A stretch of DNA of 63,290 bases, from assembly GCA_035526585.1 (NCBI GenBank), contig DATLCC010000109.1, positions 1-63,290 of the forward strand. Reading direction: 5' to 3'. The notes beneath the pieces were generated by a model. It made no database searches and was not told the origin of the DNA. It saw only the letters and a list, made by a program, of their open reading frames with translations. Positions within the stretch are counted from its first letter, which is position 1. Every line of letters starts with the position of its first letter. The stretch is from Thermoplasmatota archaeon. GTDB lineage: Archaea > Thermoplasmatota > SW-10-69-26 > JACQPN01 > JAJPHT01. Below, in pieces: positions 3,760-60,688 of the stretch. The position numbers and the translations under genes were made by a program.

Positions 3760-4617
3760 GTGCCCCAACCGGACACGAAGCCGGCCATCGTCCTCGACAG
3801 CTCGTACGAGCTTTCGAACGAAATTTCGAAAATTCGATTCCGCGTGCTGACGCGCGTATCCGACGACAAGCTCCGATCCATCCCTCAGCAGCTCGCGGAC
3901 TGCGCGGCCTACGTCCAAGGGCTGACGCGCGACGCCGTGATCGACGGGCTCTACAACCTGGGCGAGCACTCCGGCTTCTCGATGACGGAAAGCGAGGTCT
4001 ACCGGCGCATGCTCGACGACGCGCGCGCCGGCAAGTTCCACGCGCTCGTCGTCCGCGACACGAGCCGCCTCGGCCGCGACTACTGGGAGAAGCTTGGCAC
4101 CCTCCGCGACCTGCGCAGCGCCAAGATCGAGTTCCACGTCGTCGAAGACGGCGGCCGCTTCGATTTCGAAGACCGCCTCTCCAAGGTCAAGAGCTGGGCG
4201 AGCACGTGGGCCGACGAGGAGAAAAAGAAAGAAGAGATCCGGAAGTCGCTGCGAGCCACAGAAGCGCGCCGCGAGATGGGCTTCCCCACGGTACCCCCGC
4301 CGCTGGGCTATCGCGTCGTACGCGATCCCGACATGGGCCGCAAGGTGTGGAAGCTGGACGCAGCCGCCGCCAAGGTGAGCGCCTTGTTCGATGCCTTCGT
4401 CGCCGAGCCCGCCCTCACGTTCTCCGAGCTCGGCCGCCGGTGCGGGCTCGACGCGAAGCAGGTCGCACGCGCGCTCCGTAACCGCGCCTACACCGGGGGC
4501 TTCGTGTGGCAGGGAGGCTTCCGTCGCTGCGCGCCGGAAGTGGTACCTGCGATCGTGGACGAGGGGACGTTCGAGCGGGCGCAGGCCGCGCTCGCGGCCA
4601 GGCGGGACGACGCGTAG
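3760..4617 (+). CDS. serine recombinase (resolvase catalytic domain + recombinase domain), copy 1
   Basis: RVSDDKLRS nucleophile region, VVRDTSRLGRDYWE block, then LGYRV...LRNRAYTGGFVW recombinase-domain-like part. GTG 3760 lies 2 nt after the AbrB-like stop (track start 3730 is the longest alternative). No zinc-ribbon or coiled-coil tail. Confidence 0.8.
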   Translation: MPQPDTKPAIVLDSSYELSNEISKIRFRVLTRVSDDKLRSIPQQLADCAAYVQGLTRDAVIDGLYNLGEHSGFSMTESEVYRRMLDDARAGKFHALVVRDTSRLGRDYWEKLGTLRDLRSAKIEFHVVEDGGRFDFEDRLSKVKSWASTWADEEKKKEEIRKSLRATEARREMGFPTVPPPLGYRVVRDPDMGRKVWKLDAAAAKVSALFDAFVAEPALTFSELGRRCGLDAKQVARALRNRAYTGGFVWQGGFRRCAPEVVPAIVDEGTFERAQAALAARRDDA

Positions 4618-4672
4618 GACCCACGCGGGGGCCGGGTGGCGCCCGGGTGAGGCCACGCGGGTCGACGCGTGG
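4598..4672 (+). repeat. CACGTG-unit intergenic repeat, copy A
   Basis: GCCAGGCGGGACGACGCGTAG (supplies the recombinase stop codon), then CCACGCGGGGG CCGGGTGGC GCCCGGGTGAGG CCACGCGG GTCGACGCGTGGC. Confidence 0.75.
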
Positions 4673-4733
4673 CTGCGCCTGGCAAAGAGGCGGGGAAACT
4701 GTTCATATCTCCGAGCTGCCTCCTTGGGCGCGC

Positions 4734-5078
4734 ATGAACCGCCGCCGCGTCACCACCCGCATGATCCGCCTCTCCCTCGTCCGCTCGCGCATCAAGCTAC
4801 GCATCCTCTTCGCGCTCCTGGACCTGGGAGAGGCGAGCCTCGCGGACCTCGCCCGCGAGGCGCGTGCCAAGCCCGCCCACGTCGAGGGCGCGCTTTTTGG
4901 AGATGGCGTCGCCTTCCGCACAAGCACGGCCCTCGTCGCCTTGGGGCTCGTCCGCGTGCGAGAGAGCGTCTTCTCGCGAACTGCGACCCTCACGCCGCGT
5001 GGTCGCTCCGTCGCCACCGTGTGGCGACGCGAATCCACCCGCGCGACGCTCGGCCTCGCGCGCCACCCGCATGCGTGA
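4734..5078 (+). CDS. winged-helix (ArsR/TrmB-like) DNA-binding protein
   Basis: 114 aa from ATG 4734. RIKLRILFALLDLGEASLADLAREA looks like a wHTH. The upstream part of track ORF 4506.. is repeat-derived Arg/Gly-rich sequence. Confidence 0.55.
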   Translation: MNRRRVTTRMIRLSLVRSRIKLRILFALLDLGEASLADLAREARAKPAHVEGALFGDGVAFRTSTALVALGLVRVRESVFSRTATLTPRGRSVATVWRRESTRATLGLARHPHA

Positions 5079-5083
5079 GACGT

Positions 5084-5146
5084 CCACGTGGCCCCACTTC
5101 AGGACACGTGGCATCCACGTGGGGGCCACACGGGGCGACGCGTGGC
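5084..5146 (+). repeat. CACGTG-unit intergenic repeat, copy B
   Basis: CCACGTGGC CCCACTTCAGGA CACGTGGCAT CCACGTGGGGG CCACACGG GGCGACGCGTGGC. Confidence 0.75.
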
Positions 5147-5226
5147 GCGTTGCGCGACTTTCGGTTCGCTCCGCCTCGTTTCGACTTCGGAGCCTTCTTA
5201 ATCCTCCGCAGTGTCTTGCGCCTTGG

Positions 5227-6225
5227 ATGCACACGCTCGACGCCTTTCTCGCTGAGGTCGATCGCCGCCTGAAGGATGGCGAGGATCGCGATCCTCGCGT
5301 CATCGATCTCCTGCGCCCGGAAGAGACCGCGGCGTTCCGCGCGCGTGGCGCGCGGGTCTACCGCGTCCTCGCGCGCATCAGCGACGACAAGCTGCTGAGC
5401 ATCCCGCAGCAGGTCAAGGAATGCGTCCGATACGCCTGGGGTGACGTCGTCGGCGGCGTCCGTCGCGTGGATGCGGAAACGGTCGGAGGCGTCGTCGACC
5501 GGATCTACAGCCTCGGTGAGCATTCGGGATTCAAGATCGATCAGTCGCCTGTGATGCGTCGCGTCCTTCAGGAGGCGGAAACGCACGAATTCGACGCGCT
5601 CGTCGCTCGCGACGGCGCTCGTCTAGGCCGTGACTATTGGGAGAAGATGGGCACGATCCGGGACTTCCGCCGCTCGAAGGTGGAGCTCCACATCATCGAG
5701 GATGGCGGCTTCTTCGACTACGAGGATTCCATGAACAAGGTCCGTTCCTTCGCGAACACGTGGGGAGACGAGGGAAAGAAGCTCGAGGAGATCCGCAAGT
5801 CGATGAAGGCGACGCAGGCGATCCGCGACGCGCGCTTCCCGACGACGTCGCTCCCGTTCGGCTACGAGCCGGCCGTCGATGCGGTGAGCCGCCGCAAGGT
5901 GTGGCGCCCGACGCCCGAGGCGGAGGTCGTTCGCAGCGTCTTCCGCTCGATCAAAGAGGAGCCCTACGAGGAGTTCAGCTCCCTCTCGCGCCGACACGGC
6001 ATCAGCCGGCAGCTTCTGCGCAAGATCCTCCGCAACCGCGCTTATACGGGCGGATTCAACTGGAAGGGGCAGTTCGTGCGCTGCGAGACCCACGTCATCC
6101 CGCCCCTCGTGGACGAGGTCACGTTCGAGGAGGTCCAGCGGATCCTCACCCGCCGCGAGATGACGGCACGGATCCGGAGCCCGGACCTGATGAACGTCAT
6201 CCTCGGTTTCAGCCAGCAGAGCTAG
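5227..6225 (+). CDS. serine recombinase, copy 2 (paralog of 3760..4617)
   Basis: Shares blocks with copy 1 (LGEHSGF, RLGRDYWEK-GT-RD, EDGG-FD-ED, LRNRAYTGGF-W) and has the RISDDKLLS nucleophile region. ATG 5227 was chosen because the longer track ORF (4864..) overlaps the wHTH gene and repeat B. Confidence 0.8.
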   Translation: MHTLDAFLAEVDRRLKDGEDRDPRVIDLLRPEETAAFRARGARVYRVLARISDDKLLSIPQQVKECVRYAWGDVVGGVRRVDAETVGGVVDRIYSLGEHSGFKIDQSPVMRRVLQEAETHEFDALVARDGARLGRDYWEKMGTIRDFRRSKVELHIIEDGGFFDYEDSMNKVRSFANTWGDEGKKLEEIRKSMKATQAIRDARFPTTSLPFGYEPAVDAVSRRKVWRPTPEAEVVRSVFRSIKEEPYEEFSSLSRRHGISRQLLRKILRNRAYTGGFNWKGQFVRCETHVIPPLVDEVTFEEVQRILTRREMTARIRSPDLMNVILGFSQQS

Positions 6226-6249
6226 TCTCGGAACCTTCGATGACCCCTC

Positions 6250-6286
6250 CCGGCGACCACCATGCGGGTCGCCGGAGAGCGTTTTT
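6250..6286 (+). terminator. hairpin plus T-run after recombinase 2
   Basis: CCGGCGACC (6250-6258) / GGTCGCCGG (6267-6275) with an 8-nt loop, then TTTTT at 6282-6286. Confidence 0.4.
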
Positions 6287-6289
6287 CTC

Positions 6290-6880
6290 GTGCTTTCCAC
6301 CGCCCCGACGGTCATCCCTTTTCTTGCGGAGGGTCAGGTGCGGCCAGGTGACGCCACCTTCTCCCTGGTGCTCTCCTCCTCGGCCCTGCTCGCCGAATTC
6401 GAAGCGCGCCTGCTCCTCGACGCGGCCGCCCGGGGGCAGGATTCCGTCCTCATCTGCGGCGACAACCGTCTCGATGCCTACGGTCTCCTAGCCCGCGCCC
6501 GCGCCATGGGCATCGAGGACGCACTCGCCGACGGCGTGCACCTGGCTCGCGCGTTCACGCTCCACCAGTTCGTCGCGCTCGTCGAGGAGACGCTGCCGCG
6601 CATGGCGCGCGAAACGGACGCCTCGCTCGCTCTCGTCACGGGGTCGCTCGACCTGTTCGCCGACGAGGACGTGACCGAAGCCGAGGCCCGTGTCCTTCTC
6701 CCGCGGATGATGCGACGGCTGGGCGCGCTCGCGCACCGGGACATGATCGTCGTCGCGACCGGCGATGCGCGTTCGCGGCACGCTGACCTCGCGCGCGAGC
6801 ACGCTCCCCACCGCGAGATCTCCAGGATCGCGCCCTCCGCGCGCCAGCCGCGCCTCGACGCGTTCGTGGAGGTGGCATGA
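6290..6880 (+). CDS. RecA-fold (RadB/KaiC-like) protein lacking a P-loop
   Basis: 196 aa with a RadB-like layout by eye (IPFLAEG-VRPGD..., LALVTGSLDLF, IVVATGD). No GxxxxGK[ST]: the position reads LVLSSSALLAE. No clear Walker-B Asp. ATGA overlap with the next ORF. Confidence 0.45.
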   Translation: MLSTAPTVIPFLAEGQVRPGDATFSLVLSSSALLAEFEARLLLDAAARGQDSVLICGDNRLDAYGLLARARAMGIEDALADGVHLARAFTLHQFVALVEETLPRMARETDASLALVTGSLDLFADEDVTEAEARVLLPRMMRRLGALAHRDMIVVATGDARSRHADLAREHAPHREISRIAPSARQPRLDAFVEVA

Positions 6881-7128
6881 TGGGGCGGACCATGCCCACC
6901 TCCCGCGACATCCTGGACCGTCTCGAGTTCGAGTGGCGCGATTTCCGTCGGGGCCTCACCGGCGCCGAGCAGGCGCGCTTCGATGCGCTCTGGCAGATGG
7001 CGCGCGCGCACGCGAGCGCGATGTCGAACCAGGCGCCGCTCGACCCGATGCAGGCCGCGCTCCTGTCGATGCTCCTGGAGTTGCAGAAGGAGGTGGAAGC
7101 GTTACGGAAGGCGTCCTCCTCGACGTGA
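6877..7128 (+). CDS. small helical hypothetical protein
   Basis: 83 aa. Its start overlaps the upstream stop (ATGA) and its TGA overlaps the GTG of the polymerase gene (GTGA). Composition is normal. Confidence 0.45.
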   Translation: MMGRTMPTSRDILDRLEFEWRDFRRGLTGAEQARFDALWQMARAHASAMSNQAPLDPMQAALLSMLLELQKEVEALRKASSST

Positions 7129-9413
7129 CCCCCGACCCGCGTCGACGCGAGATGGTCGCATGGGTGAAGACGCCGACGCGCGTCGTCCCGACCCGGCACT
7201 CGTTCACGCCCGCGTTCTACGTCTCCGGTCCGCGACCCGCGCTCGAAGATCTCGCGCGCACCTTGCCGCTGCTTCCCGGCGTCGAGGCGCCCACCTGGGG
7301 ATCGCATCTTCTTGGCCTTGCGCCCGGTCATCGGCGCGCGCTCAAGGTCCCCGTACGCGACATGAAGCGTCTGATGCAAGTCGCGAAGATGGTGGACGCG
7401 CGCGGGGAGCACCGCGACTTCACGCTCTACGATGTGGATCTGCGCGCAAGCCAGCGCTTCTTCATGGAACGAGGACTGTTCCCTTTCGCGAACGTGCGCC
7501 TGGAGCCCGAGGGGCTCGTCGCGATCGACGATGCGTGGGATCTCCGCTACGACGTCCCTGCCCTCAGCGAGGTCCATCTGGACGTCGTGGTCGAGGACAT
7601 GGCTCGCCTCAAAGGCCCCATCGTGCACATCGAGATCGAGGGAGCGCACTTCGAGGGGAGGGAAGAGGATCTTCTGAGCGAGGCGCAGGCGCGTCTCCAC
7701 GCGCTCGATCCCGACGTCGTGCACACGGACGGCGGCGATCGCTGGATGCTCGACCATCTCGCGGCACGGGCGGCGATCCACGGTATCGCGTGGGACCTGG
7801 GGCGCGACGCGACGCTCTCCGTCCCGAGACGGCGCGCGCGGAGCTTCCATCAGTACGGGCACATCCGATACAGCGCGCCGACGCACCCACTGGTCGGGCG
7901 CATCCACGTCGATCACCAGTCGAGCTTCTTCTTCCGCGAATCGGGGCTCGCGGGGATCATCGATCTCGCCCGCATCTCAGGCGTGCCGTTGGGCGAGATC
8001 GCGCGCCTCGAAGCCGGGACCGCAGTGACCGCGATGCAGATCGGGCACGCGAAGCGCGCCGGCCGCTTGATCCCGTGGAAGAAGAACATGCCCGAGAAAC
8101 CAAAGACGCTGCGTTCTCTCGTCAAGGCCGACCGCGGCGGCTACATCTACGATCCTCGCGTCGGGCTCCACGAGGACGTCATCGAGCTCGACTTCTCCTC
8201 GCTCTACCCCGCGCTCATCGCGAAGCACAACCTCGGCGCGGAAACGATCCTCTGCTCGTGCTGCGACCCCCGCGAACTCGCTCCGGAGTGCTTCGTTCCC
8301 CAGATCGGCTTCCACGTGTGCGACAGGCAACAGGGGCTCGTGCCCCAGGTGCTCACGAAGCTCGTCCACCGCCGCTCTGAGCTCAAGAAGATGCGAAAGC
8401 GTGAGCGCAAAGGCACGCCCAAGTTCAACGAGTACAAGGGGCGTGTGGACGCGCTCAAATGGCTCAACGTCGTCTCCTTCGGCTATCAAGGCTACAAGAA
8501 CGCGCGCTTCGGCTGCATCGAAGCGCACGAGGCCACGTGCGCGTGGGCGCGCGAAGCGCTCCTCTCTGCCGCCGAGGTCGCCCGCGAGAGCGGCTACGAG
8601 GTGCTCCACGGCATCGTCGACAGCCTCTGGCTCGAAAGGACGACGCCGGCCGCCATCTCGGCCGAGGATCTCGCAGAACGCGTCGAGCAGGAGGTCGGCA
8701 TTCCCTTCGAGCCGCAAGGACGCTACCACTGGATCGTCTTCCTGCCCACGCGCGCCCACGTGGCGCCAGGTGCCCCCAGCATCGGGGCGCCCAACCGCTT
8801 CTACGGTCTCTTCGACAAGGAGCCCGACGCGCCCACCCGTAGCCAGGCCGGGCAGGACATCGACCACATCGCGGGCGGCGCGCTCAAGGTGCGCGGGGTC
8901 GAGCTTCGCCAGAGCAGCGCGCCGCAGGTGGTCGCCACGATCCAGGCAGCCTTCCTCGAGGCGCTCTGCAAGGCGAAGAGCGCCGCCGCGTTCCACGCCA
9001 TCATCCCCGACGCGTTCACGGCCGCACGCCCGCACGTGCGCCGGTTGCAGGAGGGCGCATACCCGCTCGAAGAGCTCGTCATCGAGATGAATGTCACGAG
9101 CGGCCTCGAAGGGCGCACCAGCATGACCCACACCACCGCCGCGCTGCACCAGATGAAGAAGCTCGGCCACGAGACCCCCGCCGGGGACCGCGTGCGCTAC
9201 GTCATCACCGACGCGGAGAGCCGCGACCCGGAGCAGCGCGTCCGCGTCGCCTCGCGCCTCCACGAAGGCACGCGCTACGACGCGGACGCGTACCTGACGC
9301 TTGTCGTGCGGGCTCTTACGAGCCTCCTGCTGCCCCTCGGGTATGACGAGGCGCTCGTGCGCGACGCGCTCACCGGCGCGCCGCGGCAGGTCGCGCTGCC
9401 GCGGGCACGGTGA
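7125..9413 (+). CDS. polB: family-B DNA polymerase with non-canonical motif C
   Basis: Motif A LDFSSLYPALI, motif B KWLNVVSFGYQGYKNARFG, motif C region VLHGIVDSLW (IVD where DTD is expected). Start set at GTG 7125 (alternative ATG 7152). The upstream part of track ORF 6765.. is Arg/Pro-rich junk overlapping two other genes. Confidence 0.88.
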   Translation: MTPDPRRREMVAWVKTPTRVVPTRHSFTPAFYVSGPRPALEDLARTLPLLPGVEAPTWGSHLLGLAPGHRRALKVPVRDMKRLMQVAKMVDARGEHRDFTLYDVDLRASQRFFMERGLFPFANVRLEPEGLVAIDDAWDLRYDVPALSEVHLDVVVEDMARLKGPIVHIEIEGAHFEGREEDLLSEAQARLHALDPDVVHTDGGDRWMLDHLAARAAIHGIAWDLGRDATLSVPRRRARSFHQYGHIRYSAPTHPLVGRIHVDHQSSFFFRESGLAGIIDLARISGVPLGEIARLEAGTAVTAMQIGHAKRAGRLIPWKKNMPEKPKTLRSLVKADRGGYIYDPRVGLHEDVIELDFSSLYPALIAKHNLGAETILCSCCDPRELAPECFVPQIGFHVCDRQQGLVPQVLTKLVHRRSELKKMRKRERKGTPKFNEYKGRVDALKWLNVVSFGYQGYKNARFGCIEAHEATCAWAREALLSAAEVARESGYEVLHGIVDSLWLERTTPAAISAEDLAERVEQEVGIPFEPQGRYHWIVFLPTRAHVAPGAPSIGAPNRFYGLFDKEPDAPTRSQAGQDIDHIAGGALKVRGVELRQSSAPQVVATIQAAFLEALCKAKSAAAFHAIIPDAFTAARPHVRRLQEGAYPLEELVIEMNVTSGLEGRTSMTHTTAALHQMKKLGHETPAGDRVRYVITDAESRDPEQRVRVASRLHEGTRYDADAYLTLVVRALTSLLLPLGYDEALVRDALTGAPRQVALPRAR

Positions 9414-9523
9414 TGCCACACGGGACGACGCCTGGCGCCCACGTGTGTGCTATGTGGCGCCCACGTGGGGCCACGTGGGCCCACGTGGCGCCCACCTGGG
9501 TGCCACACGGGACGACGCCTGGC
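9414..9523 (+). repeat. CACGTG-unit intergenic repeat, copy C (terminal module duplicated)
   Basis: TGCCACACGGGACGACGCCTGGC occurs at 9414-9436 and again at 9501-9523, bracketing GCCCACGTG-type units. The copy spans nearly the whole gap between the convergent polB and truD stops. Confidence 0.8.
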
Positions 9524-12384: not shown

Positions 12385-12395
12385 GCTATCACCGA

Positions 12396-12434
12396 GCTAT
12401 CATTCCAGTATGATAGCTTGATATCATGATATCA
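12396..12434. promoter_or_regulatory. compound palindromes in AT-rich spacer upstream of the methyltransferase gene
   Basis: GCTATCAT-N6-ATGATAGC (12396-12417), followed by two tandem copies of the self-complementary TGATATCA (12419-12426, 12427-12434). Confidence 0.45.
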
Positions 12435-15294: not shown

Positions 15295-15554
15295 GCGATG
15301 CGGCGCTCATGAACGTGGTGGCGCAAGGATTGTTTCGGCATCCCCTCCAGACCGTATGCACAAATCCACGATCGTCCACTGGAAGCCACGGTCGCCTTGG
15401 AAGCCCTCGATTGCCGCTCCCCCTCCCGCTGCGCGTCGTGCGAGCATCGGCTCGAGGGCGCCTGCATGCTGGAGCGCGCGCTCCAGGAAGCACTGGCAGA
15501 GCGTCCTCGACCCGCGATCGCGGTGGCGATGCTTCCGCGCGCGACCGCCTGAGA

Positions 15555-16700: not shown

Positions 16701-16757
16701 CCTTCAAGATTCCGCCCGGCCGGTGACCCGGCGATGCGAGGCGAAGGGTCGGGCGGA

Positions 16758-16810
16758 CAGGTGGCGCCACGTGGGGACCACGTGGGGGCCAGGCGGGGAG
16801 ACGCGTGGCG
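16758..16810 (+). repeat. CACGTG-unit intergenic repeat, copy D
   Basis: CAGGTGGC GCCACGTGGGGA CCACGTGGGGG CCAGGCGG GGAGACGCGTGGC. Confidence 0.8.
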
Positions 16811-17407
16811 AGCGTGAACGAAGCTTGGCGCTGGCGCGAAGGCCCGCGCCGCGCGCTCCTCGTCGCCGGCACGCTCGCGGCGAGCGCGGCCCTCATCGCG
16901 GTGAAGGCGCTCGCGCTGGGCCCTTTCGTCGCGGCGTACGGCGCGAGCGTGGTGCTGAGCCTCGCGCTCTTCCTCGCTGCGCTCGGGCTTCTTCGCCACC
17001 GGCTGCGGCTGGAATGGGGGGACGCTCTCCTATCAGCCGCGCCTGCGTTCCTCGTCCTCATCGTCGCGCTCGCGAACACTCCGATGACCTACGAGGCCGA
17101 GCGGTTCGCGCTGGCGCTGCCTCACCCCGATGGCGGCGAGTCCCAGGGCGCCTCCGTCCTCCGGCCGTTCGAAGCGCGGCACCCCACGGCGCGGGTGGAA
17201 TGGGCGTATCCCAGTGGAACGGACGCTGAAGTTCTAAGCAAGCGCACGCGCGCGGCGTTCGCCGATGCAGGGTGGCGCGTCGTCACGTCCAGCGCACCCA
17301 GCGAGGGGCTTTCGGGCTTCGTGCAGGCGACGCGTTGGGGGTTCCTCGCCTCGTGCAACGTGTGGGACGAGCCGGACGCGCGGGTGCACTGCCTGGTCAC
17401 GGAGTGA
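16805..17407 (+). CDS. membrane hypothetical protein
   Basis: 200-aa ORF with about 3 hydrophobic segments. The listed GTG start lies inside repeat D; GTG 16814 is also possible. Confidence 0.5.
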   Translation: MASVNEAWRWREGPRRALLVAGTLAASAALIAVKALALGPFVAAYGASVVLSLALFLAALGLLRHRLRLEWGDALLSAAPAFLVLIVALANTPMTYEAERFALALPHPDGGESQGASVLRPFEARHPTARVEWAYPSGTDAEVLSKRTRAAFADAGWRVVTSSAPSEGLSGFVQATRWGFLASCNVWDEPDARVHCLVTE

Positions 17408-18375: not shown

Positions 18376-18434
18376 GACGCCACGTGGAGGCCAGGTGGCG
18401 CCCACGTGGGGGCCAGGCGGGGCGACGCCTGGCG
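18376..18434 (+). repeat. CACGTG-unit intergenic repeat, copy E
   Basis: GCCACGTGGAGG CCAGGTGGC GCCCACGTGGGGG CCAGGCGG GGCGACGCCTGGC. Confidence 0.8.
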
Positions 18435-18443
18435 GGGCGCGGC

Positions 18444-20375
18444 TTAGTCCTTCTTGACCTCATAGTCGACGTCGATGCTGTCTGGGTCCGATGCGTCCGC
18501 CTTCTTGGTCTGTGTCCGGGTGTGGGGCTCACCGGTGTCCGGGGCCGGATCCGAGGCCGAGGGAGGCGCCTGCGGCGCCTCGTACATCTTCGCTCCGACG
18601 CGCTGCACGACCTCGGCGAGCGTGTCCGTCGCCCGCTTCATCTCGGCGACGTTCCCGCCTGCGACGGCGGCCTTCAGCGCGTCGCGCGCGCCCTCGACCT
18701 CGCCACGCAGCTTCGCGTCGACCTTGTCGCCCGCGTCCTTCATCGTTCGCTCGACCGTATAGAGCAGCGAATCCGCTTCGTTGCGGGCGTTGATCTCCTC
18801 CAGCTTCTTGCGGTCCTCTTCTTCGTACTCTTTCGCGGAGCGCTCCGCGCGCTTGACCTCCTCCTCGTTGAGGCGGGTCGAGCCCGTGATCGTGATGCGC
18901 TGCTGGCGGCCGGTGCCGAGGTCCTTCGCGGCGACGTTCACGATGCCGTTCGCGTCGATGTCGAAGGTCACTTCGATCTGCGGGATGCCACGCGGCGCGG
19001 GCGGGATCCCGTCGAGGTGGAAGCGTCCGAGCGACTTGTTGTCGCGCGCGATCGCGCGCTCGCCCTGAAGCACATGCACCTCGACCGATGTCTGCATGTC
19101 CGCGGCCGTCGAGAAGATGCGGCTCTTCTTCGTCGGGATCGTCGTGTTGCGATCGATGAGCTTCGTGTTCACGCCACCCAGCGTCTCGATGCCCAGCGAC
19201 AGAGGCGTGACGTCCAGGAGGAGGAGATCTTTCACCTCGCCGGTGATGACGCCCGCCTGGATCGCCGCGCCCAGAGCGACGGCTTCGTCGGGGTTGACGC
19301 TCCGGTTGGGCTCCTTGCCGGTGAGATCCTTGACGAGCTGTTGGACCGCGGGGATGCGGGTGCTGCCGCCCACGAGAATGATCTCGTTCACGGCGCCCCA
19401 GTCCAGGCCGCTGTCCTTGAGCGCCTGCTCCGTCGGGCCGCGGAGGCGCGCGAGGATCGGCTGGATGAGCTGCTCGAACTTCGGTCGCGTGAGGTCGAGG
19501 TCGATGTGCTGGGGACCGGCCGACGTCACCGTGATGTACGGGAGGTTGACGCTCGTCTTCTGCGCGGAGGAGAGCTCCTTCTTGGCCTTCTCCGCGGCTT
19601 CCTTGAGGCGCTGGACCGCAGTGCGGTCCTTCATGAGGTCGACGCCGGCGCGGTTCTTGAAGTCCTCCGCCAGCCAGCGCATGATGAGCTCGTCGATGTC
19701 GTCGCCGCCGAGGTGGTTGTCGCCGGCCGTGGCCTTGACCTCGAAGACGCCTTCGCCGAACTCGAGGATCGAGACGTCGAACGTGCCGCCGCCGAAGTCG
19801 AAGACGAGGATCGTCTCCCCGACCTTCTTGTCCAGACCGTACGCGAGGGCGGCCGCGGTGGGCTCGTTCACGATGCGGAGGACCTCGAGCCCGGCGATGC
19901 GGCCGGCGTCCTTGGTCGCCTGGCGCTGCGCATCCTCGAAGTAGGCAGGCACGGTGATGACGGCCTTCGTGACCGGCTCGCCCAGGAATGCCTCGGCGTC
20001 GCGCTTCAGCTTTTGGAGGATGAAGGCGCTCATCTCCTCGGGAGCGAACGTCTTGTTGGCGTTCGGGAGCGTGACGTGCGCCTTGCCGTTCGCGCCCTCG
20101 GTCACCTTGAAGGGGACTCGCGCCGCCTCTTGGCGCGTCTCGTGCATCTGGCGCCCCATGAATCGCTTGATCGAGAAGACCGTGTTCTCGGGGTTTACGA
20201 CGGCTTGCCGCTTCGCGACCTCGCCCACGAGAAGCTCGCCGTCCTTCGTGAAGGCGACCACGCTCGGTGTCGTGCGTGCGCCCTCCGCGTTGGAGATGAT
20301 CTCGGCCTTGCCGCCTTCCAGGACGGCGACCGCGGAGTACGTCGTGCCCAGGTCGATGCCGATGACCTTGCTCAT
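18444..20375 (-). CDS. dnaK: chaperone DnaK (Hsp70)
   Basis: 643 aa with [20 protein letters not shown] and [10 protein letters not shown]. Confidence 0.97.
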
Positions 20376-20511: not shown

Positions 20512-20556
20512 GGCCAGGTGGCGCCCACGTGGGTGCCACGCGGGACGACGCCTGGG
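20512..20556 (+). repeat. CACGTG-unit intergenic repeat, copy F
   Basis: CCAGGTGGC GCCCACGTGGGTG CCACGCGG GACGACGCCTGG. Ends immediately before the grpE stop codon. Confidence 0.8.
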
Positions 20557-22889: not shown

Positions 22890-22952
22890 CCCACGCGTCG
22901 TCCCGCGTGGCCCCAGGTGGGCGCCACCTGGGGCGGCAGGGCGCCACGAGGG
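22890..22952 (-). repeat. CACGTG-unit intergenic repeat, copy G (inverted orientation)
   Basis: CCCACGCGTCGTCCCGCGTGG CCCCAGGTGGGC GCCACCTGGGG..., which is the reverse complement of the usual terminal module plus units. Confidence 0.75.
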
Positions 22953-24692: not shown

Positions 24693-25573
24693 CGCACGAG
24701 CGCCGCGGCATTGTCCCAAAGGATGCGGCCCTTCGCGGCGTCCGAGAGACCTGGCGTGGCAAGCAGATCCAACACGTTCTGGCGCATGGAGCGGATGCCC
24801 GGAGAGGGCCAGTCCGTCCCCCACACGATCTTCTCGGGGATCTCCGCCAGCCGCGGCAGCGCATCGAACAGTCGTGTGGGCGGGATGCCCGAGATCTCGA
24901 TGTACACATTGGCGTGACGGCGGGCGAGGAAGAACGCCGTTGGCCCCCACAGGGGACGCCCCGCGTGGGCGACAAGAAGCGGAAGCGAAGGATGGTCGGC
25001 CGCGATGTCGTCGATGAAGAGCGGGTCCGTGAAGGTGTTCTTCGCCCGCGGAAAAATGCTCGTTCCGGTATGGATCGTGACGGGGATGCCGTGCTTCTCT
25101 GCGACCTCGTAGAGGGGACGATAGCACGCGTCGTTGGGGTACAGAAGCTGGTGCGCGGGATGCACCTTGAACATCTGGATCCCAAGCTTGACGAGGCGCT
25201 CGGCTTCCGCTCCCACGTTCGCGACCGTGCGCGGATGGACGCTCCCCATCGGCACGAGGCGCGGACGCCCGCGGCAATACGCCGCGACCCAGTCGTTCAC
25301 GTCGGGGCCGAACCCCATGACATGCGGGGAAACGTAGTTGACGCACACAGCACGGTCGACCCCTTCGCCGGCGAGATAGCGTTCGAAAGCTCCGGGGTCG
25401 GATTGCAGCGCGACGAGCTCGTCGACGTCGGAGCGCCCGCGCACCATCACGGGGTAGACCTCCGGGCGCAGCATCCGCCAGGGCTGCATGTGCACGTGGG
25501 CATCGAAGACGCGGTACCCTTCGATCAACGCGGGCCGCGATCGCGGGGCGCGCGGAAAGCGCTTGCGAGCCAC
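24689..25573 (-). CDS. amidohydrolase-2 family metal-dependent hydrolase
   Basis: Has FDAHVHM, VHPAH, IHTG, VAHAG and WGTDWP. Start is GTG 25573 or TTG 25528. Its stop shares the tetranucleotide CTAG with the pyrG stop. Confidence 0.8.
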   Translation of the reverse strand: MARKRFPRAPRSRPALIEGYRVFDAHVHMQPWRMLRPEVYPVMVRGRSDVDELVALQSDPGAFERYLAGEGVDRAVCVNYVSPHVMGFGPDVNDWVAAYCRGRPRLVPMGSVHPRTVANVGAEAERLVKLGIQMFKVHPAHQLLYPNDACYRPLYEVAEKHGIPVTIHTGTSIFPRAKNTFTDPLFIDDIAADHPSLPLLVAHAGRPLWGPTAFFLARRHANVYIEISGIPPTRLFDALPRLAEIPEKIVWGTDWPSPGIRSMRQNVLDLLATPGLSDAAKGRILWDNAAALVR

Positions 25574-29236: not shown

Positions 29237-29290
29237 GCGACGCTGCGGGGCGCCATCCGGCCATCAGACCTTGCCAACACGCGCCCCCCC

Positions 29291-42754: not shown

Positions 42755-42865
42755 CCACGTGGCGCCACGTGGGCCCACATGGCGCGCTGGGCGTCAGGTG
42801 GCCCTCGGGTGAGGATCGGGTGGCGCTCAGGTGCGGGCCAGGTGTCCCTCAGGTGTGGCGTGAGG
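42755..42865. repeat. degenerate 10-bp-phased CACGTGG/CAGGTG array, copy K (no terminal module)
   Basis: CCACGTGGCG CCACGTGGGC CCACATGGCG CGCTGGGCGT CAGGTGGCCC TCGGGTGAGG ATCGGGTGGC GCTCAGGTGC GGGCCAGGTG TCCCTCAGGT GTGGCG. Confidence 0.7.
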
Positions 42866-52340: not shown

Positions 52341-55300
52341 TCAAGCTAGGCCGGAGAGGGCCGCGAGCGCCTGGCCGCCGGTGGGGTCCACGTAGAAGAC
52401 CTTCACCGGGCTCTGCGCCGTGACGGCTCCGATGGGCGAGACCCACGCGCGGACCTCCCAGCGACCGATGGGGTAGACGCCGCCTGCGATCGCGTTCGCG
52501 ACGCACGGGCTCGCGCCGTCGAACTCCCACGCGAAGGTGCCATCGGGGTCGGTCGTCGTGAGATCGACGACGCACCATCCCAGGAGCGTGTTCGACTGCG
52601 CGTTCGAGGGCGCGGCGTTCCGCGTGTTCTCGAGAACGATGAGAGGCACGTAGCGCGCCTCGATCTCCACGCGGGAGCCCATCGCGACGAGCGTGCCGTC
52701 GGCGAACTGAGCCGTGCCGGTGCCGTGCGGCCTCTCCTGCATGTCGCGGTAGAGCGGGTCGCCGCCTGCCGTGTAGTTCTCGTTGGGGAAGAGGAGCGGC
52801 AGGAACGGCGCGCGCTCGCCGGGCGCGGGAATGACGGTCGCGCGGACCGGCATGCCGATCTCGATTGGCACGATGATCGACGGCACTCCGTCGTCGAGGT
52901 CCCTCGTGACGACGACGAGGTTGCTCGCGCCGGGGTAGTTCAGCGTGATGCGGAGGACGTCCGTGTCGATCCACAGCTCCGGAGCGATGGTCGCGATGAC
53001 ATCGAAGCCGTCGGGCACGAGGTCGGGGACGTCGATCTGGCCGTTGACCTTGAGGCTCAGCGAGACGCCGCCGATCGTGAGGTCCGCGGGCCGGTCGCCG
53101 GGGAGCGTCGCGTTGAGGCGCACGGAGATCGGGTGGTTCGCGCCGACGCGGATGCTCTGCGTCGTCTTCGGGCTGGGCTTGCCGCCGCTGTCGACGACGA
53201 GGCCCACCGGGTAGACGCCGCTGTGGCTGAACGTGTGCGTCGGGGCGACGCCGGTGCCTGGCGCGGCGTTGAACCGGTCGCCGAAGGTCCACGTGTAGTT
53301 CACGATGGGCTGGCCGTCGGGGTCGCTCGACGTGCTGCCGTTGAAGAAGAACGGAGTGTTGCGCACGGCGGGCTGGTTGTCGGTGTGGTACGTCCAGGCC
53401 GCCGTCGGGAGGCGATCCTGGACCGCGACGGTCTTCGTCGCGACGCCTGTCGTGTTGTGGTCGTCCCACACGGTGAGCGTCGTCGTGTACGCGCCCGGAC
53501 GGTCATACGTCTTCGTGGGGTGCATGACGGTCGAGGTGTTCCCCTCGCCAAAGTCCCAGAGCCAGGCCACGATCACGCCGTCGTCGTCGACGGAAAGGTC
53601 GCGGAACTGCTGCTCCTCGTTGAGCTTCACGGGGTCCACGGGCGCCTCGAAGCGCGCGATCGGACGGAGGTTCACGAAGACCTGCTTCGTGAGCGAGCTG
53701 GACTCGTTGAAGACGTCCCACACCTTGAGCGAGACGAAGAACGTGCCGTTCGAGGGGAAGACGAAGGATGGGTTGGGGTCCGCCGAGCTCGCCGCAGGGA
53801 TGGTGCCGAAGTCCCACTGCCAGCGGTCGATGGGCGCGCTGGGCGCGGGGATGCTGAGGTCGTGGAAGTGGACCGCCTCGCCTTTCACGGGGACGATCGG
53901 CTCGAAGGAGAAGTTCACCTTCGGCTGCGCGCGCAGCACGGTCACGCCGCGGATGACGGGCTGCGAGAGGCCGCCGTCCTGGTCGCGCGAGTGGAGCACG
54001 ACGGAGTAGTTGCCGGGGATCAGGAACGTCCGGTTCACGATCTGGCCCGTGAGCTGGACGCCGTCGCTGAACGACCACTCGAACGTGAGGGGCGCGGTGG
54101 GCACGTCGGGGTCGATGCCCTGCGCGGTGAAGACGACGTCGTCGCCGGCCACGGGCGGCCGCGGCGCGAACTCGAGCGACGCGGTCGGCGGGCGGTTGAG
54201 GATGCGGATGAAGCGCGTGACGCTCGCAGGCGTACCGCCGGAATCCGTGACCGTGAGGGTGACGCTCTTCGTGCCCACTCCCGTGTAGACGTGGTGGATG
54301 ACCTTCCCGAACTTCACGTCGCCATCGCCCAGGTCCCACGTCCAGTTCACGAGCGCGTCCCCGTCGGGGTCGATGCTCGAGTCGCTGAACGTGACCTCCG
54401 CACCGCGGAAGGCGGGCGTGGGGTTCGCGCCGAAGTTGGCGCGGGGCGCGCTGTTCGCGACCGTGACGCTCTTCGTGATGTTCGACTGGCCGAGGTTGTT
54501 GTCCGTCGTCGTGAGCTTGACGTTGAAGGTGCCGGCGCGCGGGAACGTGTGCGACACGACGCCGCCGCGGGACGACGCCGTTCCGTCGCCGAACTCCCAA
54601 AGGCTCGAGAGGATGAGGCCGTCGACGTCGACGGACGTGCTCGCGAAGGTGACGGGGACGTTCGCGGGCTCGCCGTTGGGCGTCCACGTGAAGTCCGCGA
54701 AGGGCTCGCGGTTGGAGACCATGATGTTCGTCGAGACGGTGTCCGTGTCGCCGCCGTCGTCCGTGACGGAGAGGCTCACCGTGAAGACGCCGGGACGCGC
54801 GTAGGCGTGGATGGGCGCGGAGCCGGAGCCGAAGGAGCCGTCGCCGAAGCTCCAGTTCCAGAGCGCGATGACGCCGTCCGTGTCGGTCGAGTTGTCGAGG
54901 AACTGGATCGCATCGAGCGTCTGCGGCGCGGTGCCGTTCACGGTGCTGAAGCTGAATCCCGCGAGCGGCGGCGAGTTGCGCACGATGACGACCTTCGAGA
55001 GCGCGGAGCGCGCGCCCAGCTCGTCGGTCGTGGTGAGGGTGACGGTCACGTTCTGGCCGCGCGTGAACCGGTGCGAGGGGTGGCGCGAGAAGGAGGACGA
55101 GCCGTCGCCGAAATCCCAGCTCCAGTTCGTGAGCGTGCCGTCGGGATCGAACGACTGGTCGGTGAAGGCGACCATCGTCTCGGTCGTCACGACCTTGGGC
55201 GAGAAGTCGAAGTCGGAGACGGGGTCGGCGTTGCGCACGACGATCGTCCGCGTGAGGTTCGACGTCTGCAGGTCGTTGTCGGTCGCCGACAGCGTGACCT

Positions 55301-56492
55301 CGTAGGAGCCAGGGCGCGCGAAGCGGTGCGTGGGCGTCTCGAGAGCCACGGAGCTCGAGCCGTCGCCGAAGTCCCACTGGCGGAAGACGACGATCCCGCC
55401 GTCGTCCTCGGAGAGGTCGGTGAACTGGACGGTGTCCGTCGTCTTGGGGCTCACCGGCTGGAAGTCGAAGTTGACAAGCGGCGCGCCGGGGCCGCCCAGC
55501 TGCGGGATGGCGAGCGCGGACCCCGTGGTGAAGGAGGCGGCGTAGCCGTCGAGTCGCACGCGCATCATGCCGCCCGAGACCTGGTAGATGAGGTACTCGC
55601 CGACGAAGTCCTCGATCACGACGCGCTCGCCGCCAGCGATCTCGGCGACCTCGCCATTGAACTCGAGGACGACGCTGCGCGAGACGGCGTCGGCGGGCTG
55701 GAACTCGATCTTCTTGATCGATCCGTCGCCCCACGTGTACTCCCGCACGAGCTTGTTGTCGATCTTGACCCACGTCGCGAGGAGGTTGCCCGGCTCGGAC
55801 TTCGCGTCGCTCGCCGTGACGGCTTCCTCCGTGAAGATGCGCGCGCCGCCGTCCTCGACGGCGACCGTGTCGACCTTTTCTCCGGTCGTGAGGACGACGT
55901 AGGCGACCTTGCTCTCGTCGCCAGGCTTCGTGTCGGCCTGCTTGACGCCGCCGAGGTCGAGATCGCCCGGTGTCGTGAGGACCTTGTTGCGGATGTCGCC
56001 CTCCTTGAGCACGGTCGTCTTGACCTGACCCTGGAGCTGCACGGACGCGAGCGCCGTGCCGACGCCGCGGTAGGAGAAGTCGCCGTGGAACATGCGCACG
56101 GTGATGATATCAGTCGGGTGGAGCTCGACGGTCCTGTCGCCGACGGCGAGCGCGACGCCGTCCACGTCCTTGACTCCGATCTTGAACTTGATCTCGTCGA
56201 CCTGTCCGGTACCCCACGCGTCCTCGGTGACGCGGCGGCCGTCGACCTCGACCCACAGCACGCTCACGCGCGCGAAGGCCTGGCCGTCGCCCGTGCGCAG
56301 CGTCGTGAGGGTCTGCTCCGCCGTGTCGGCGCCGAAGGCATGGGAGCCCGAACCGTCGTTCGAGGCGAAAAGGCCCGCAGGCGAGAGAGCGCCGACGACG
56401 CTCATCACCAACCCCAGGACGACGACAAGGATCTTCTGAAGCAACCCCGAACCCTCCGTTGAGCTAGCCTTCCCAGACCTAGCGTCCGCCAC
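52341..56492 (-). CDS. giant PKD-domain repeat surface protein
   Basis: 1383 aa with a GTG start, an N-terminal TM anchor and more than 10 PKD-like modules (W-x-FGDGS...H-x-[FY]...G-x-[FY]-x-V-x-L-x-V-x-D). Confidence 0.9.
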   Translation of the reverse strand: MADARSGKASSTEGSGLLQKILVVVLGLVMSVVGALSPAGLFASNDGSGSHAFGADTAEQTLTTLRTGDGQAFARVSVLWVEVDGRRVTEDAWGTGQVDEIKFKIGVKDVDGVALAVGDRTVELHPTDIITVRMFHGDFSYRGVGTALASVQLQGQVKTTVLKEGDIRNKVLTTPGDLDLGGVKQADTKPGDESKVAYVVLTTGEKVDTVAVEDGGARIFTEEAVTASDAKSEPGNLLATWVKIDNKLVREYTWGDGSIKKIEFQPADAVSRSVVLEFNGEVAEIAGGERVVIEDFVGEYLIYQVSGGMMRVRLDGYAASFTTGSALAIPQLGGPGAPLVNFDFQPVSPKTTDTVQFTDLSEDDGGIVVFRQWDFGDGSSSVALETPTHRFARPGSYEVTLSATDNDLQTSNLTRTIVVRNADPVSDFDFSPKVVTTETMVAFTDQSFDPDGTLTNWSWDFGDGSSSFSRHPSHRFTRGQNVTVTLTTTDELGARSALSKVVIVRNSPPLAGFSFSTVNGTAPQTLDAIQFLDNSTDTDGVIALWNWSFGDGSFGSGSAPIHAYARPGVFTVSLSVTDDGGDTDTVSTNIMVSNREPFADFTWTPNGEPANVPVTFASTSVDVDGLILSSLWEFGDGTASSRGGVVSHTFPRAGTFNVKLTTTDNNLGQSNITKSVTVANSAPRANFGANPTPAFRGAEVTFSDSSIDPDGDALVNWTWDLGDGDVKFGKVIHHVYTGVGTKSVTLTVTDSGGTPASVTRFIRILNRPPTASLEFAPRPPVAGDDVVFTAQGIDPDVPTAPLTFEWSFSDGVQLTGQIVNRTFLIPGNYSVVLHSRDQDGGLSQPVIRGVTVLRAQPKVNFSFEPIVPVKGEAVHFHDLSIPAPSAPIDRWQWDFGTIPAASSADPNPSFVFPSNGTFFVSLKVWDVFNESSSLTKQVFVNLRPIARFEAPVDPVKLNEEQQFRDLSVDDDGVIVAWLWDFGEGNTSTVMHPTKTYDRPGAYTTTLTVWDDHNTTGVATKTVAVQDRLPTAAWTYHTDNQPAVRNTPFFFNGSTSSDPDGQPIVNYTWTFGDRFNAAPGTGVAPTHTFSHSGVYPVGLVVDSGGKPSPKTTQSIRVGANHPISVRLNATLPGDRPADLTIGGVSLSLKVNGQIDVPDLVPDGFDVIATIAPELWIDTDVLRITLNYPGASNLVVVTRDLDDGVPSIIVPIEIGMPVRATVIPAPGERAPFLPLLFPNENYTAGGDPLYRDMQERPHGTGTAQFADGTLVAMGSRVEIEARYVPLIVLENTRNAAPSNAQSNTLLGWCVVDLTTTDPDGTFAWEFDGASPCVANAIAGGVYPIGRWEVRAWVSPIGAVTAQSPVKVFYVDPTGGQALAALSGLA

Positions 56493-56584: not shown

Positions 56585-56605
56585 CACTCCTCGGGATTCG
56601 CGCGC

Positions 56606-59451: not shown

Positions 59452-59484
59452 ATCCTAAAGCTGCAGGCGAAGATCACGCCATCC

Positions 59485-59520
59485 GGGGCCGCTCGCGGCC
59501 CCCTTTTTTCTTCTTTCTCT
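59485..59520 (+). terminator. GC hairpin plus T-rich tract
   Basis: GGGGCCGC-tc-GCGGCCCC (59485-59502), followed by TTTTTT (59504-59509) and CTTCTTTCTCT. Confidence 0.5.
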
Positions 59521-59565
59521 GAGTGAGCGCCAGCGCTGTGCCGATAGCGACCGCGCGCTCCCACC

Positions 59566-59658
59566 CGGGTCCCGCCTGGCCGGCACCCGGGACGCATTCA
59601 GGTGGATCCCCCGAGATGTTCTGTCTGAGGGACCCGGGTGCGTTCCAGGCGGGACCCG
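59566..59658. repeat. nested perfect inverted repeats (14 bp + 9 bp), long hairpin-forming element
   Basis: CGGGTCCCGCCTGG (59566-59579) pairs with CCAGGCGGGACCCG (59645-59658). GCACCCGGG (59583-59591) pairs with CCCGGGTGC (59633-59641). There is a 3x3 internal loop and a 41-nt apical region. Confidence 0.8.
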
Positions 59659-59750
59659 CCTGGGCCCACACATGCAGCTGCCCTGCGTTGCGGTCGCGAC
59701 GGCTGCGAATCTCCGCGTTCGCGCTGGGGCTGCGCGTTTCCGCGACCGTC

Positions 59751-60551
59751 TCACTTCCTGCGGACCAGCGCGAGTCCCGCCGCGATCGCCACGAGGGCGA
59801 GAAGGCCCGGCGCCGGCGTCTTGGCCGGGCTCGCGGTGACGAGGGGGCCCTTGATCTCGAACGGGATCTCCGGCAGGCTTGCGTGCCCGATGCCGTGCTG
59901 GTCGCTCGCGACCGTGAGGACGTAGGATCCCGGCGAGGGGAAGACGCGCGAGAAGACGACGCTTCCCATGCGGCCCGGGGGCAGCGTGACGTCCTCCGTG
60001 TCGACGGGGGTCCCGTTCACGAGGCGCGAAAGCCGCCCGCTCGCCGGTTCCTTCGCGGCGACGACGATCCCGGTCTCATCGTCGAGGAAGAACAGCTCCG
60101 CGTTCACGGGTCTCTCCGCATAGTGGTAGTTCGTGCGCAGGTTGCTCGACTCCAGCCACACCGAGGTCGGCGGGTAGACATGGATCGGGATGCGCCGCAA
60201 TACGCCCTCGGTGTGGACGAGGAATGTCCACTCGCCGGGCGCGGGGAACGCGGCCTCGACCCGGAATCCACCCTCGCGATGCGTGACGGTCGCGTTCATC
60301 TGGCCCGCTCCCGTGGCCTCGATCTCCACGCTCGCATTCGGGAGCACCTCCGGCTTCCCTGAGGCGTTGGACACGACCGTCCCGTTGAACGTGACCGGAT
60401 CCTGCGCCTTGACCACGACCCGGTCAGCCTGGAGGAACACCGCGAGACCATCGGCTTGCGCGGAGAAGACGCCGGTGAAGTCCCCGATGTGGGCCAGCGC
60501 GGAAGGCGCCACGAGGATCGCCGCGAGAAGGGTCAGGACCAGCGCGCGCAT
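59751..60551 (-). CDS. secreted protein with PGF-CTERM-like sorting signal
   Basis: 266 aa with a signal peptide. C-terminal TPAPGLLALVAIAAGLALVRRK. Confidence 0.7.
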   Translation of the reverse strand: MRALVLTLLAAILVAPSALAHIGDFTGVFSAQADGLAVFLQADRVVVKAQDPVTFNGTVVSNASGKPEVLPNASVEIEATGAGQMNATVTHREGGFRVEAAFPAPGEWTFLVHTEGVLRRIPIHVYPPTSVWLESSNLRTNYHYAERPVNAELFFLDDETGIVVAAKEPASGRLSRLVNGTPVDTEDVTLPPGRMGSVVFSRVFPSPGSYVLTVASDQHGIGHASLPEIPFEIKGPLVTASPAKTPAPGLLALVAIAAGLALVRRK

Positions 60552-60633
60552 GCGAGGGCAATCCTGGGACCGGTCTTCAACCTGCCCCGCGACCGAAGGC
60601 GCTCATGCTCGCCGGCGCGCGCCCACACATGAG

Positions 60634-60688
60634 CCGCACCTGCACCCCACCTGCACCGCACCTGCACCGCACCTGTGGCCCACGTGCG
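60634..60688 (+). repeat. five tandem 11-bp units with CACCTG/CACGTG core, copy L
   Basis: CCGCACCTGCA CCCCACCTGCA CCGCACCTGCA CCGCACCTGTG GCCCACGTGCG. Ends 3 nt before the subtilase stop. Confidence 0.85.

Follow-up and report, generated by a model that had tools for sequence, protein, structure and literature searches.

Contig DATLCC010000109.1, a stretch of 63,290 bp with a GC content of 69.4% (the window, throughout this text), carries a private and dense family of short intergenic repeats. Its host is a high-GC uncultured Thermoplasmatota archaeon. The basic element of the family is built from n tandem 10-12-bp units, each with a CCA-S-S-TGG core, and closes with an end module, an inverted repeat of 22 nt. 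The family itself is real; the step by which its copies were dispersed and the enzyme responsible are matters that we infer. The interpretation favored here, to which we give about an even chance of being right, is that of a genome-specific, fast-turnover family of non-autonomous mosaic repeats resembling REP/BIME/REPIN or BOX elements. It is based on the similarity of whole elements, including spacers and loop, on their sharp ends, on their occurrence in three forms and on the locus-specific expansion of units, and further on their survival just 3' of stop codons, the occasional remodelling of a C-terminus and their absence from close relatives. An earlier note on this DNA, made from the letters alone, had proposed a dispersed intergenic repeat family with one architecture at twelve loci. 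The sequences are present at all twelve and the family is genuine; the common architecture, however, applies to ten of them, as the loci at 42755-42865 and 60634-60688 consist of units without the module, and the element that the note had placed at 29291-29370 extends leftward to ~29270 with a degenerate inverted module.

A right-anchored alignment of 14 module copies with their flanks, distributed over 10 intergenic loci, yielded the consensus GCCAsrCGGGrmGACGCsTGGC. Nine of its columns are invariant and 7 more are at least 90% conserved, and with a mean column identity of 89% over the 14 copies the conserved terminal module described earlier stands. The conserved columns include the non-palindromic loop GGrmGA, and every module is preceded by a unit of the form (c)CCAC(G/C)TGGG(g/t). 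The outer boundary is sharp, with information content dropping from 1-2.7 bits per position to ~0.1 bit directly past the last module base. A search of the window for CCASRCGGGRMGACGCSTGG with at most 2 mismatches returned 13 matches versus 0.10 expected, a count reached by none of 100 dinucleotide shuffles, and an nhmmer profile of the last unit plus module recovered 14 copies at E ≤ 1e-3 and no further match in the window. The core CCA[CG][CG]TGG occurs 29 times, with 23 instances between genes (4,751 nt in total) and 6 within coding DNA (58,539 nt), making it ~47-fold denser in intergenic sequence. The earlier observation is therefore confirmed for the window. GC-rich palindromes are frequent in genomes of this kind, and CACGTG is found within genes at expectation; a chance or compositional artefact of 69% GC sequence has nonetheless next to no probability, being refuted by the module count, the core enrichment and the nhmmer copies, and the elements can be aligned over their full length. 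The CACGTG count within genes (37 observed vs 34.3 expected under a Markov model) reveals neither excess nor avoidance, which also rules out a restriction-site-like avoidance of this hexamer. For CCACGTGG, 3 instances in coding DNA compare with 7.6 expected, and the entire excess resides in the intergenic arrays, unlike that of HIP1, an octamer palindrome over-represented genome-wide, in coding DNA as well.

Within the arrays, successive cores are separated by 10 bp (11 cases), 11 bp (25 cases) or 12 bp (8 cases), and otherwise by multiples of these distances, doubled where a unit has decayed. The earlier claim of about one palindrome per helical turn holds, as 44 of 55 core intervals measure 10-12 bp. 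The number of units varies by locus, with 2-6 units plus the module in each module element; the units are contiguous, and the unique spacers that characterize CRISPR arrays are absent. Half-sites read CCAC in ~78% and CCAG in ~22% of cases, and the two central positions of the unit vary independently, with unit centers CG, CC+GG and GC in a ratio of 16 : 13 : 0 as compared to ~17.5 : 10 : 1.4 under independence. Tandem Repeats Finder (TRF) identified units homogenized within a locus, namely GGATCCACCT in 2.8 copies with 94% matches (E10) and CCGCACCTGCA in 3.8 copies with 93% matches (E12), and this likeness of units within loci points to in situ expansion by slippage. The arrays were recovered independently by TRF and by a repeat finder (families D8, D11, D12 and D15).

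The module elements take three forms (Table 1). Monomers (E2, E4, E5, E6 and E7) are a run of units followed by the module, head-to-tail dimers (E1 and E3) bear a module of the same direction at each end, and head-to-head dimers (E8, E9 and E10) have inverted modules facing outward, so that five elements hold two modules each. The three head-to-head dimers can be aligned over their full ~88 nt, with 75% mean column identity and 22-nt inverted ends, and look like MITEs (miniature transposable elements with inverted repeats) or REPINs. Terminal inverted repeats (TIRs) are present in these three only, the other 7 module elements being single-ended or direct dimers. E4-E7 share the spacer as well as the core, CAGGTGGCGCC(C)ACsTGGGkGCCA. 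The unit-only loci E11 and E12 and a two-unit array at 6335-6356 belong to an older CAGGTG-array type shared with relatives.

Table 1. Intergenic repeat elements of the window, and serine recombinase clusters in the window and in contigs of related genomes (L077 to L171).
Feature	Position	Strand or form	Modules	Units and other parts	Setting
E1	4597-4682	+, head-to-tail dimer	4597-4618, 4652-4673	~3 degenerate units between; extra CGCCTGG half-arm	
E2	5084-5146	+, monomer	5125-5146	3 units	5 bp past stop of gene 4734-5078
E3	9414-9523	+, head-to-tail dimer	9415-9436, 9502-9523	5-6 units between	fills whole convergent gap PolB (stop 9413) / TruD (stop 9530)
E4	16757-16810	+, monomer	16788-16809	3 units	divergent gap upstream of dnaJ
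E5	18376-18434	+, monomer	18412-18433	3 units	9 bp from dnaK stop
E6	20512-20556	+, monomer	20535-20556	2 units	abuts grpE stop codon
E7	22890-22952	-, sole minus-strand monomer	22890-22911	2-3 units to right	mid-gap, between glycerol-3-phosphate dehydrogenase-like gene and pyrG
E8	25569-25656	head-to-head dimer	25569-25590 (-), 25635-25656 (+)	4 units between	
E9	26882-26969	head-to-head dimer	26882-26903 (degenerate, inverted), 26948-26969		begins immediately past stop of gene 26408-26881
E10	~29270-29370	head-to-head dimer	~29270-29297 (decayed, inverted, left), 29340-29361	4-5 units; extra GCGCCTGG half-arm	convergent gap carA / 29394-31148
E11	42755-42865	unit-only	no family module	~10 units: CCACGTGG x2, then 11-bp CTCAGGTG-type	different small hairpin GCGGCGCTCGACTCGGCGCCGC just downstream
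E12	60634-60688	unit-only	no module	(CCGCACCTGCA)x4 plus one CACGTG unit	3 bp from stop of subtilase gene 60692-62560
Mini-array	6335-6356			two CAGGTG units	upstream of ORF 6368-6880
Recombinase cluster, window	3447-6225				
Recombinase cluster, L077	8052-10532				
Recombinase cluster, L166	89-2547				
Recombinase cluster, L168	3791-6197				
Recombinase cluster, L169	10001-12298				
Recombinase cluster, L170	10001-12738				
Recombinase cluster, L171	8500-10999				

The 12 elements occupy 7 tandem, 2 convergent and 3 divergent gaps, and no TATA-like or T-rich tract occurs within them, in agreement with the earlier statement that they are not simply promoters or terminators. Most copies are found at gene 3' ends, 70 bp or more from TATA-like boxes. 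Of the 9 elements in tandem or convergent gaps, 7 lie no more than 9 bp from a stop codon, 3 of them exactly adjacent to it and 1 overlapping it, and between elements adjoining a stop and the next start 51-136 bp remain. The serine recombinase gene 3760-4617 takes its final 6 codons and its TAG from the left module of E1, this being the one stop codon that the repeats had been said to supply, and the relative of this gene in L077 has a different C-terminal end. GrpE, TruD and DnaK have kept their ancestral C-termini, with the element located just past the stop. Six-frame translation of the repeats yields ATRDDAW, PRGTTRG/HGTTPG and APTWGP, confirming that the peptides recurring at the ends of over-long open reading frames (ORFs) are repeat translations. 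Orientation is independent of the neighboring gene, and 7 of the 8 elements that are not head-to-head dimers lie on the + strand (p = 0.07), which lends weak support to the description of the family as oriented. The density of about one copy per 5 kb given earlier averages over an uneven distribution: all 10 module elements are located between 4.6 and 29.4 kb, at ~one element per 2.5 kb across 25 kb, and among gaps of at least 40 bp a module element is present in 10 of 17 in the first 29.5 kb versus 0 of 12 in the remainder (Fisher p = 0.001). A replication-related signal was considered and ruled out, as GC skew merely follows gene strand.

Location at gene 3' ends is also what would be expected of selected RNA elements, acting either as hairpins in 3' untranslated regions (UTRs) that block 3'-to-5' decay or help to set transcript ends, the genome being too rich in GC for oligo-T terminators, or as small RNA genes. 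We consider this explanation unlikely. Seven of the 12 elements lie within 9 bp of a stop codon, REPs have been proposed to act in this manner in bacteria (PMC3733652), and the module elements fold stably on both strands (-23 to -72 kcal/mol; z -1.9 to -7.0 relative to dinucleotide shuffles), with E8 forming a near-perfect 88-nt hairpin (-70 kcal/mol, z = -7). This folding signal, however, is a trivial outcome of palindromic units. The module is a dyad with 8-bp arms and a 6-nt loop in which 84.6% of cells are paired, but its stem shows no compensatory change: the only often-variable pair, at positions 5 and 18 (where either side may be C or G), is complementary in just 7 of the 13 distinct copies, and 380 of 500 column shuffles pair at least as well as observed. 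Hence, the variation gives no sign of selection on an RNA helix. In addition, the elements occur in either orientation with respect to the upstream gene and in divergent gaps too, no U-tract is present, and Rfam 15 returned 0 matches at gathering thresholds for the whole window and 0 even at E ≤ 1 for the 4-30 kb region. An RNA-level role of the 3' hairpins is plausible as a consequence of the repeats.

The main rival is an array of phased binding sites for a dimeric DNA-binding protein, be it a regulator or a factor of chromatin, boundary or silencing type, and we regard it as possible, if rather doubtful. One CCAS/STGG palindrome per helical turn would permit cooperative polymerization along one face of the DNA, and the end module, as a split and wider-spaced site, would cap the filament. 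The 10-12-bp spacing of the cores is consistent with such phasing, as are the independent variation of CCAC and CCAG half-sites and the occurrence of the same C/G ambiguity, without covariation, at module positions 5 and 18. This symmetric ambiguity looks more like the tolerated degeneracy of a recognized half-site than random decay. A CAGGTG core is moreover kept in four genomes that differ in spacers, orientation and end modules, and arrays recur at orthologous junctions (3' of the serine recombinase gene Res1, 3' of TruD and upstream of a conserved 144-aa gene). Against recognition by a protein stand, however, the conservation of spacers and module loop and the sharp boundaries; head-to-head dimers with TIR-like ends are typical of element families, and the copies lie mostly at gene 3' ends rather than promoters. 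Isolated sites within genes are neither enriched nor avoided, the unrelated arrays of more distant relatives have an 8-bp period, so that helical phasing is not general, and no candidate binding protein was identified. From the helically phased E-box reading of the earlier note the spacing is thus retained, whereas the binding array itself remains only as a rival.

Syntenic contigs of related metagenome-assembled genomes (MAGs) were gathered via DnaK and recombinase homologues. The module is absent from these contigs, nhmmer scans of L077, L078 and L163-L168 being empty. The three closest relatives by TruD identity to the window (L077, 80%; L168, 79%; L167, 78%) carry 10-12-bp CAGGTG/CACCTG arrays that end in an inverted unit or a small palindrome, and two arrays of L168 (4939-5004 and 9798-9887) are homologous over ~90 bp. 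Some of these arrays lie at junctions where the window has an element: directly 3' of Res1, the place of E1, in L077 and L168, and 3' of TruD, the place of E3, in L167. A third junction, upstream of the 144-aa gene, bears arrays in the relatives only (L077, L167 and L168). The profile scan and junction comparison that the earlier note had called for thus found the module missing and related CAGGTG arrays at some junctions. Farther relatives (TruD identity 67-72%) present unrelated mosaic repeats of 8-10-bp units in the same kinds of gaps: inverted arrays of GGAGATTCG type in L078, GGGCGCGCG arrays in L166 and, in nearly every gap of L165 and L171, 3-4 copies of GCCAAGAC plus TTCCGCG modules. 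With CAGGTG arrays at 78-80% TruD identity and unrelated units at 67-72%, repeat type tracks phylogeny and turns over fast. Carrying short-unit arrays is common in the clade, and the contigs, drawn from at least 9 related genomes, suggest for most members a short-unit mosaic family of their own that is rapidly replaced. Comparison of empty and filled sites encountered relatives too diverged (TruD ≤80%) to define insertion boundaries or target-site duplications, and in the window an additional gene occupies the gap in which E4 lies.

Several of these contigs can be grouped. L165 and L171 appear to belong to one genome (same sample, similar GC, same repeat family), and L078, L079 and L169 probably to another, given that L078 and L079 have an identical gene table and that the recombinase through which L169 was retrieved is also recorded on the 378-kb contig of L079. 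In the L165/L171 genome, from forest-soil sample ERZ1758434, the repeat is a ~170-bp mosaic in which arrays of 3-4 GCCAAGAC units flank a GGTTCCGCGTTTCCGCGCGTTCCGTGGCAGAAAATGGACG core, and it is far denser than the window family (L165: 2233-2682, 4222-4586, 5850-5988, 6835-7128, 9615-10000, 12756-12992 and 14689-15227; L171: 692-1200 and 11000-11522).

E1 and E2 lie in a conserved cluster, always beside TruD, that comprises an AbrB/MazE-like gene, the serine recombinase Res1 (3760-4617 in the window), in some cases an EarA-like gene, and the serine recombinase Res2 (5227-6225). Both recombinases retain the catalytic R(V/I)S motif, and neither matched a solved structure (PDB) by sequence. Among 5.8 billion proteins Res2 has 80 homologues, those with a named source all being from Thermoplasmatota, and these are 81-94% identical to the window copy versus 67-80% for TruD. 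Next to the recombinases, the gap between Res2 and TruD forms a hot spot of variable genes. In the window (6226-9413) it holds two uncharacterized ORFs and a family-B DNA polymerase, bracketed by the mini-array on the left and E3 on the right; elsewhere it holds a 595-aa DUF6798 protein (L166), a 674-aa uncharacterized protein (L171), a 172-aa ORF (L169) or just a 41-aa ORF call (L168), and it is without genes in L077 and L167.

These observations raise the prospect that the repeats are res- or att-like recombination sites of the two serine recombinases, or were dispersed by them, a proposal that we find scarcely probable. E1 extends into the 3' end of Res1, and E2 is located 80 bp upstream of Res2; arrays also follow Res1 in L077, L166 and L168; the adjoining gap differs in gene content among genomes, with arrays bracketing the window insertion; L169 and L170 have Res2 inverted with respect to Res1; and the few homologues of Res2 are confined to the clade and more conserved than TruD. 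Yet a distance of 3-24 kb separates 8 of the 10 module elements from the recombinase genes, L169 and L170 encode both recombinases and have no arrays beside them, Res2 is 81-94% identical across genomes with unrelated repeat units, and no crossover-site logic could be derived. The notion of a master copy beside the recombinases, likewise, holds in the nearest relatives and fails in L169 and L170. The divergent recombinase pair by E1 and E2 is the only candidate in view for a host protein, and the arrays might conceivably be cis-sites of a lineage-specific machinery, that is, phased platforms for a host protein, with Res1/Res2 as candidate, that disperses and maintains them. Such an archaeal serine-recombinase counterpart of REP-RAYT, also acting at the Res2-TruD hot spot, is in our estimation very unlikely.

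Immediately upstream of the AbrB/MazE-like gene, at 3409-3441, there are 3-4 GTCACTAG boxes with 11-12-bp spacing, which are kept in every relative examined (L077 10533-10580; L166 60-88; L168 3750-3790; L171 8450-8499). They are probably an operator or iteron array of the recombinase cluster.

The search for the family was extended beyond these contigs. The exact degenerate module pattern gave 76 single matches in unrelated taxa when scanned against one genome per species (185,579 species, GTDB representatives) and 83 single matches in JGI metagenomes; none of these adjoin unit arrays, and they are hence regarded as chance matches. The pattern had no match in IMG/VR viral contigs, BLAST of the elements against plasmids and phages returned nothing, and a protein search with 344 aa of concatenated six-frame repeat translations found no match at E ≤ 10. 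The claim that the family is undescribed therefore holds as far as Rfam and sequence collections are concerned, but its architecture has precedent in REP/BIME, REPIN and BOX elements (PMC3733652, PMC3049150). No relevant literature was found on CACGTG arrays in archaea or on intergenic repeats in Thermoplasmatota.

Repeats with which the family may be compared include REP, BIME and REPIN elements, which are mobilized by RAYT Y1 transposases, and PATEs, the palindrome-associated transposable elements of IS200/IS605 type in haloarchaea. REP families are species-specific, mostly located downstream of genes and commonly arranged as head-to-head dimers, and have a conserved unpaired GTAG or CGTC tag at one end of the palindrome (PMC3733652). 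Like them, the window family features a short, GC-rich, imperfect palindrome (22 nt, 8-bp arms) in many extragenic copies mostly just 3' of genes (one 63-kb contig has 14 modules, spread over 10 gaps), arranged as singlets, head-to-tail clusters (two) and head-to-head dimers forming long hairpins (three), with no target-site duplication and a sequence private to one genome or lineage. It differs in that an array of 10-12-bp sub-units, which REPs lack, stands before every palindrome, in that its host is archaeal, and in the lack of both a GTAG/CGTC tag outside the stem and a RAYT or IS200/IS605 gene in 63 kb. Streptococcus BOX elements enclose tandem internal modules, in varying number, between terminal ones, and they alter ORF ends (PMC3049150). 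The window family resembles this boxA-(boxB)n-boxC arrangement, by analogy only, in its terminal modules and variable tandem internal modules, in size change through gain or loss of the latter, in stem-loop folding and in insertion at gene ends, by which ORF ends are created or altered. The boxB module measures ~45 bp, whereas the internal unit here is 10-12 bp and itself palindromic, and there is no sequence similarity; BOX also has TIRs, target-site duplications and a suspected insertion sequence (IS) partner, as compared to TIRs in 3 of 10 elements and no duplication in the window. E8-E10 share with MITEs and PATEs their non-coding nature, a length of 88-100 bp, ~22-nt TIRs and extensive self-pairing, but unlike MITEs the family has no target-site duplication and no known matching IS ends, most of its copies are single-ended, and its elements contain tandem micro-units. 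Arrays of 2-10 direct ~11-bp repeats in helical phase also recall iterons and partition sites such as parC of plasmid R1, in which ten 11-bp repeats are bound, as in related arrays, by ParR/ribbon-helix-helix proteins. Partition and iteron arrays, however, occupy a single locus by partition or regulatory genes, as opposed to 12 dispersed loci at gene 3' ends, mostly with a shared module, and Pfam detected no ParA- or ParR-like gene in the window.

Several results weigh against the interpretation as mosaic repeats spread by copying. None of the 10 module elements has a direct repeat flanking it, so that target-site duplication is lacking; no conserved tetranucleotide lies outside the module arms in the 14 flanked copies, CGTC being found only within the loop-stem junction on the complementary strand of the module; and Pfam detected no transposase of any kind in the window, RAYT and IS200/IS605 Y1 enzymes included. 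Without tag, duplication, IS partner or RAYT/transposase in 63 kb, membership in REP or MITE families is not claimed. All module copies lie within 25 kb, which might point to local duplication or gene conversion rather than to transposition, and the family is known from a single 63-kb contig of its genome, which bears on genome-wide copy number and mobility. Finally, the variable module positions are symmetric C/G choices at a half-site edge, and relatives have arrays of differing sequence at shared gene junctions; both facts fit protein recognition, or site-level selection, at least as well.

If the mosaic-repeat interpretation is correct, copying or gene conversion at the DNA level, dependent on a trans-acting enzyme not encoded in the window, would have spread the elements to many intergenic sites, and arrays would lengthen or shorten locally through slipped-strand mispairing between units. 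Copies would survive only where promoters and reading frames remain unbroken, mainly 0-9 bp downstream of stops, and, where transcribed in 3' UTRs, would fold into very stable GC hairpins in either orientation. A likely side-effect, and possibly a co-opted role, would be to protect 3' ends or insulate transcription units, and the family type would be quickly replaced between related genomes.

Bacterial repeats of this small, dispersed, palindromic kind (REP/RAYT, BOX, Correia) have been well studied; those of archaea hardly have, and those of uncultured soil Thermoplasmatota are not known to have been studied. If confirmed genome-wide, the family would provide a tractable system for the origin, spread and replacement of repeat families in archaea and for the enzyme responsible, as well as strain-typing markers for organisms known only from MAGs. 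It would also call for caution in annotation, where such repeats give rise to spurious long ORFs and starts and to changed C-termini in high-GC archaeal MAGs, and would be relevant to assembly, which dense hairpin-forming repeats can break.

The codon-usage map and Pfam matches place in the window the archaeal genes for TruD, RNA polymerase subunit L/Rpb11, an exosome Csl4/Rrp4-type protein, a family-B DNA polymerase and a DUF2070 protein, together with a grpE-dnaK-dnaJ region, carA/carB and pyrG; no tRNA gene was found in the window. The nearest named relatives of its DnaK are proteins of 'Candidatus Thermoplasmatota archaeon' MAGs (79-88% identity), and intergenic DNA contains TATA-like boxes compatible with archaeal promoters, such as CTTCTATAAAACGC upstream of dnaK. 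A small gene without Pfam match (16805-17407, +), probably encoding a membrane protein, has E4 at its 5' edge; relatives do not have it at the junction between dnaJ and a 286-aa gene, where their gap measures 44-71 bp. The gap downstream of dnaJ (15295-15554) contains a block conserved between genomes, …CTCGA(T/C)TGCCGCTC…TGCGAGCA…, with counterparts in L166 (7762-8024), L167 (5673-6089) and L168 (9729-10222), and may be an uncalled small Cys-rich ORF. PKD-repeat surface proteins are also encoded, two of them very large (2-2614 and 52341-56444), and these two account for the bulk of the long direct-repeat families reported by the repeat finder (D1-D7), which bear no relation to the intergenic family. 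Upstream of a small-domain methyltransferase gene, at 12385-12434, lie clusters of TGATAGC/GCTATCA (and GATATC) palindromes, which look like a transcription-factor binding-site array and are kept in L077 (4997-5071), L167 (5062-5237), L168 (9206-9293), L171 (17290-17408) and L169, which has them at two loci (6294-6352 and 19618-19728).

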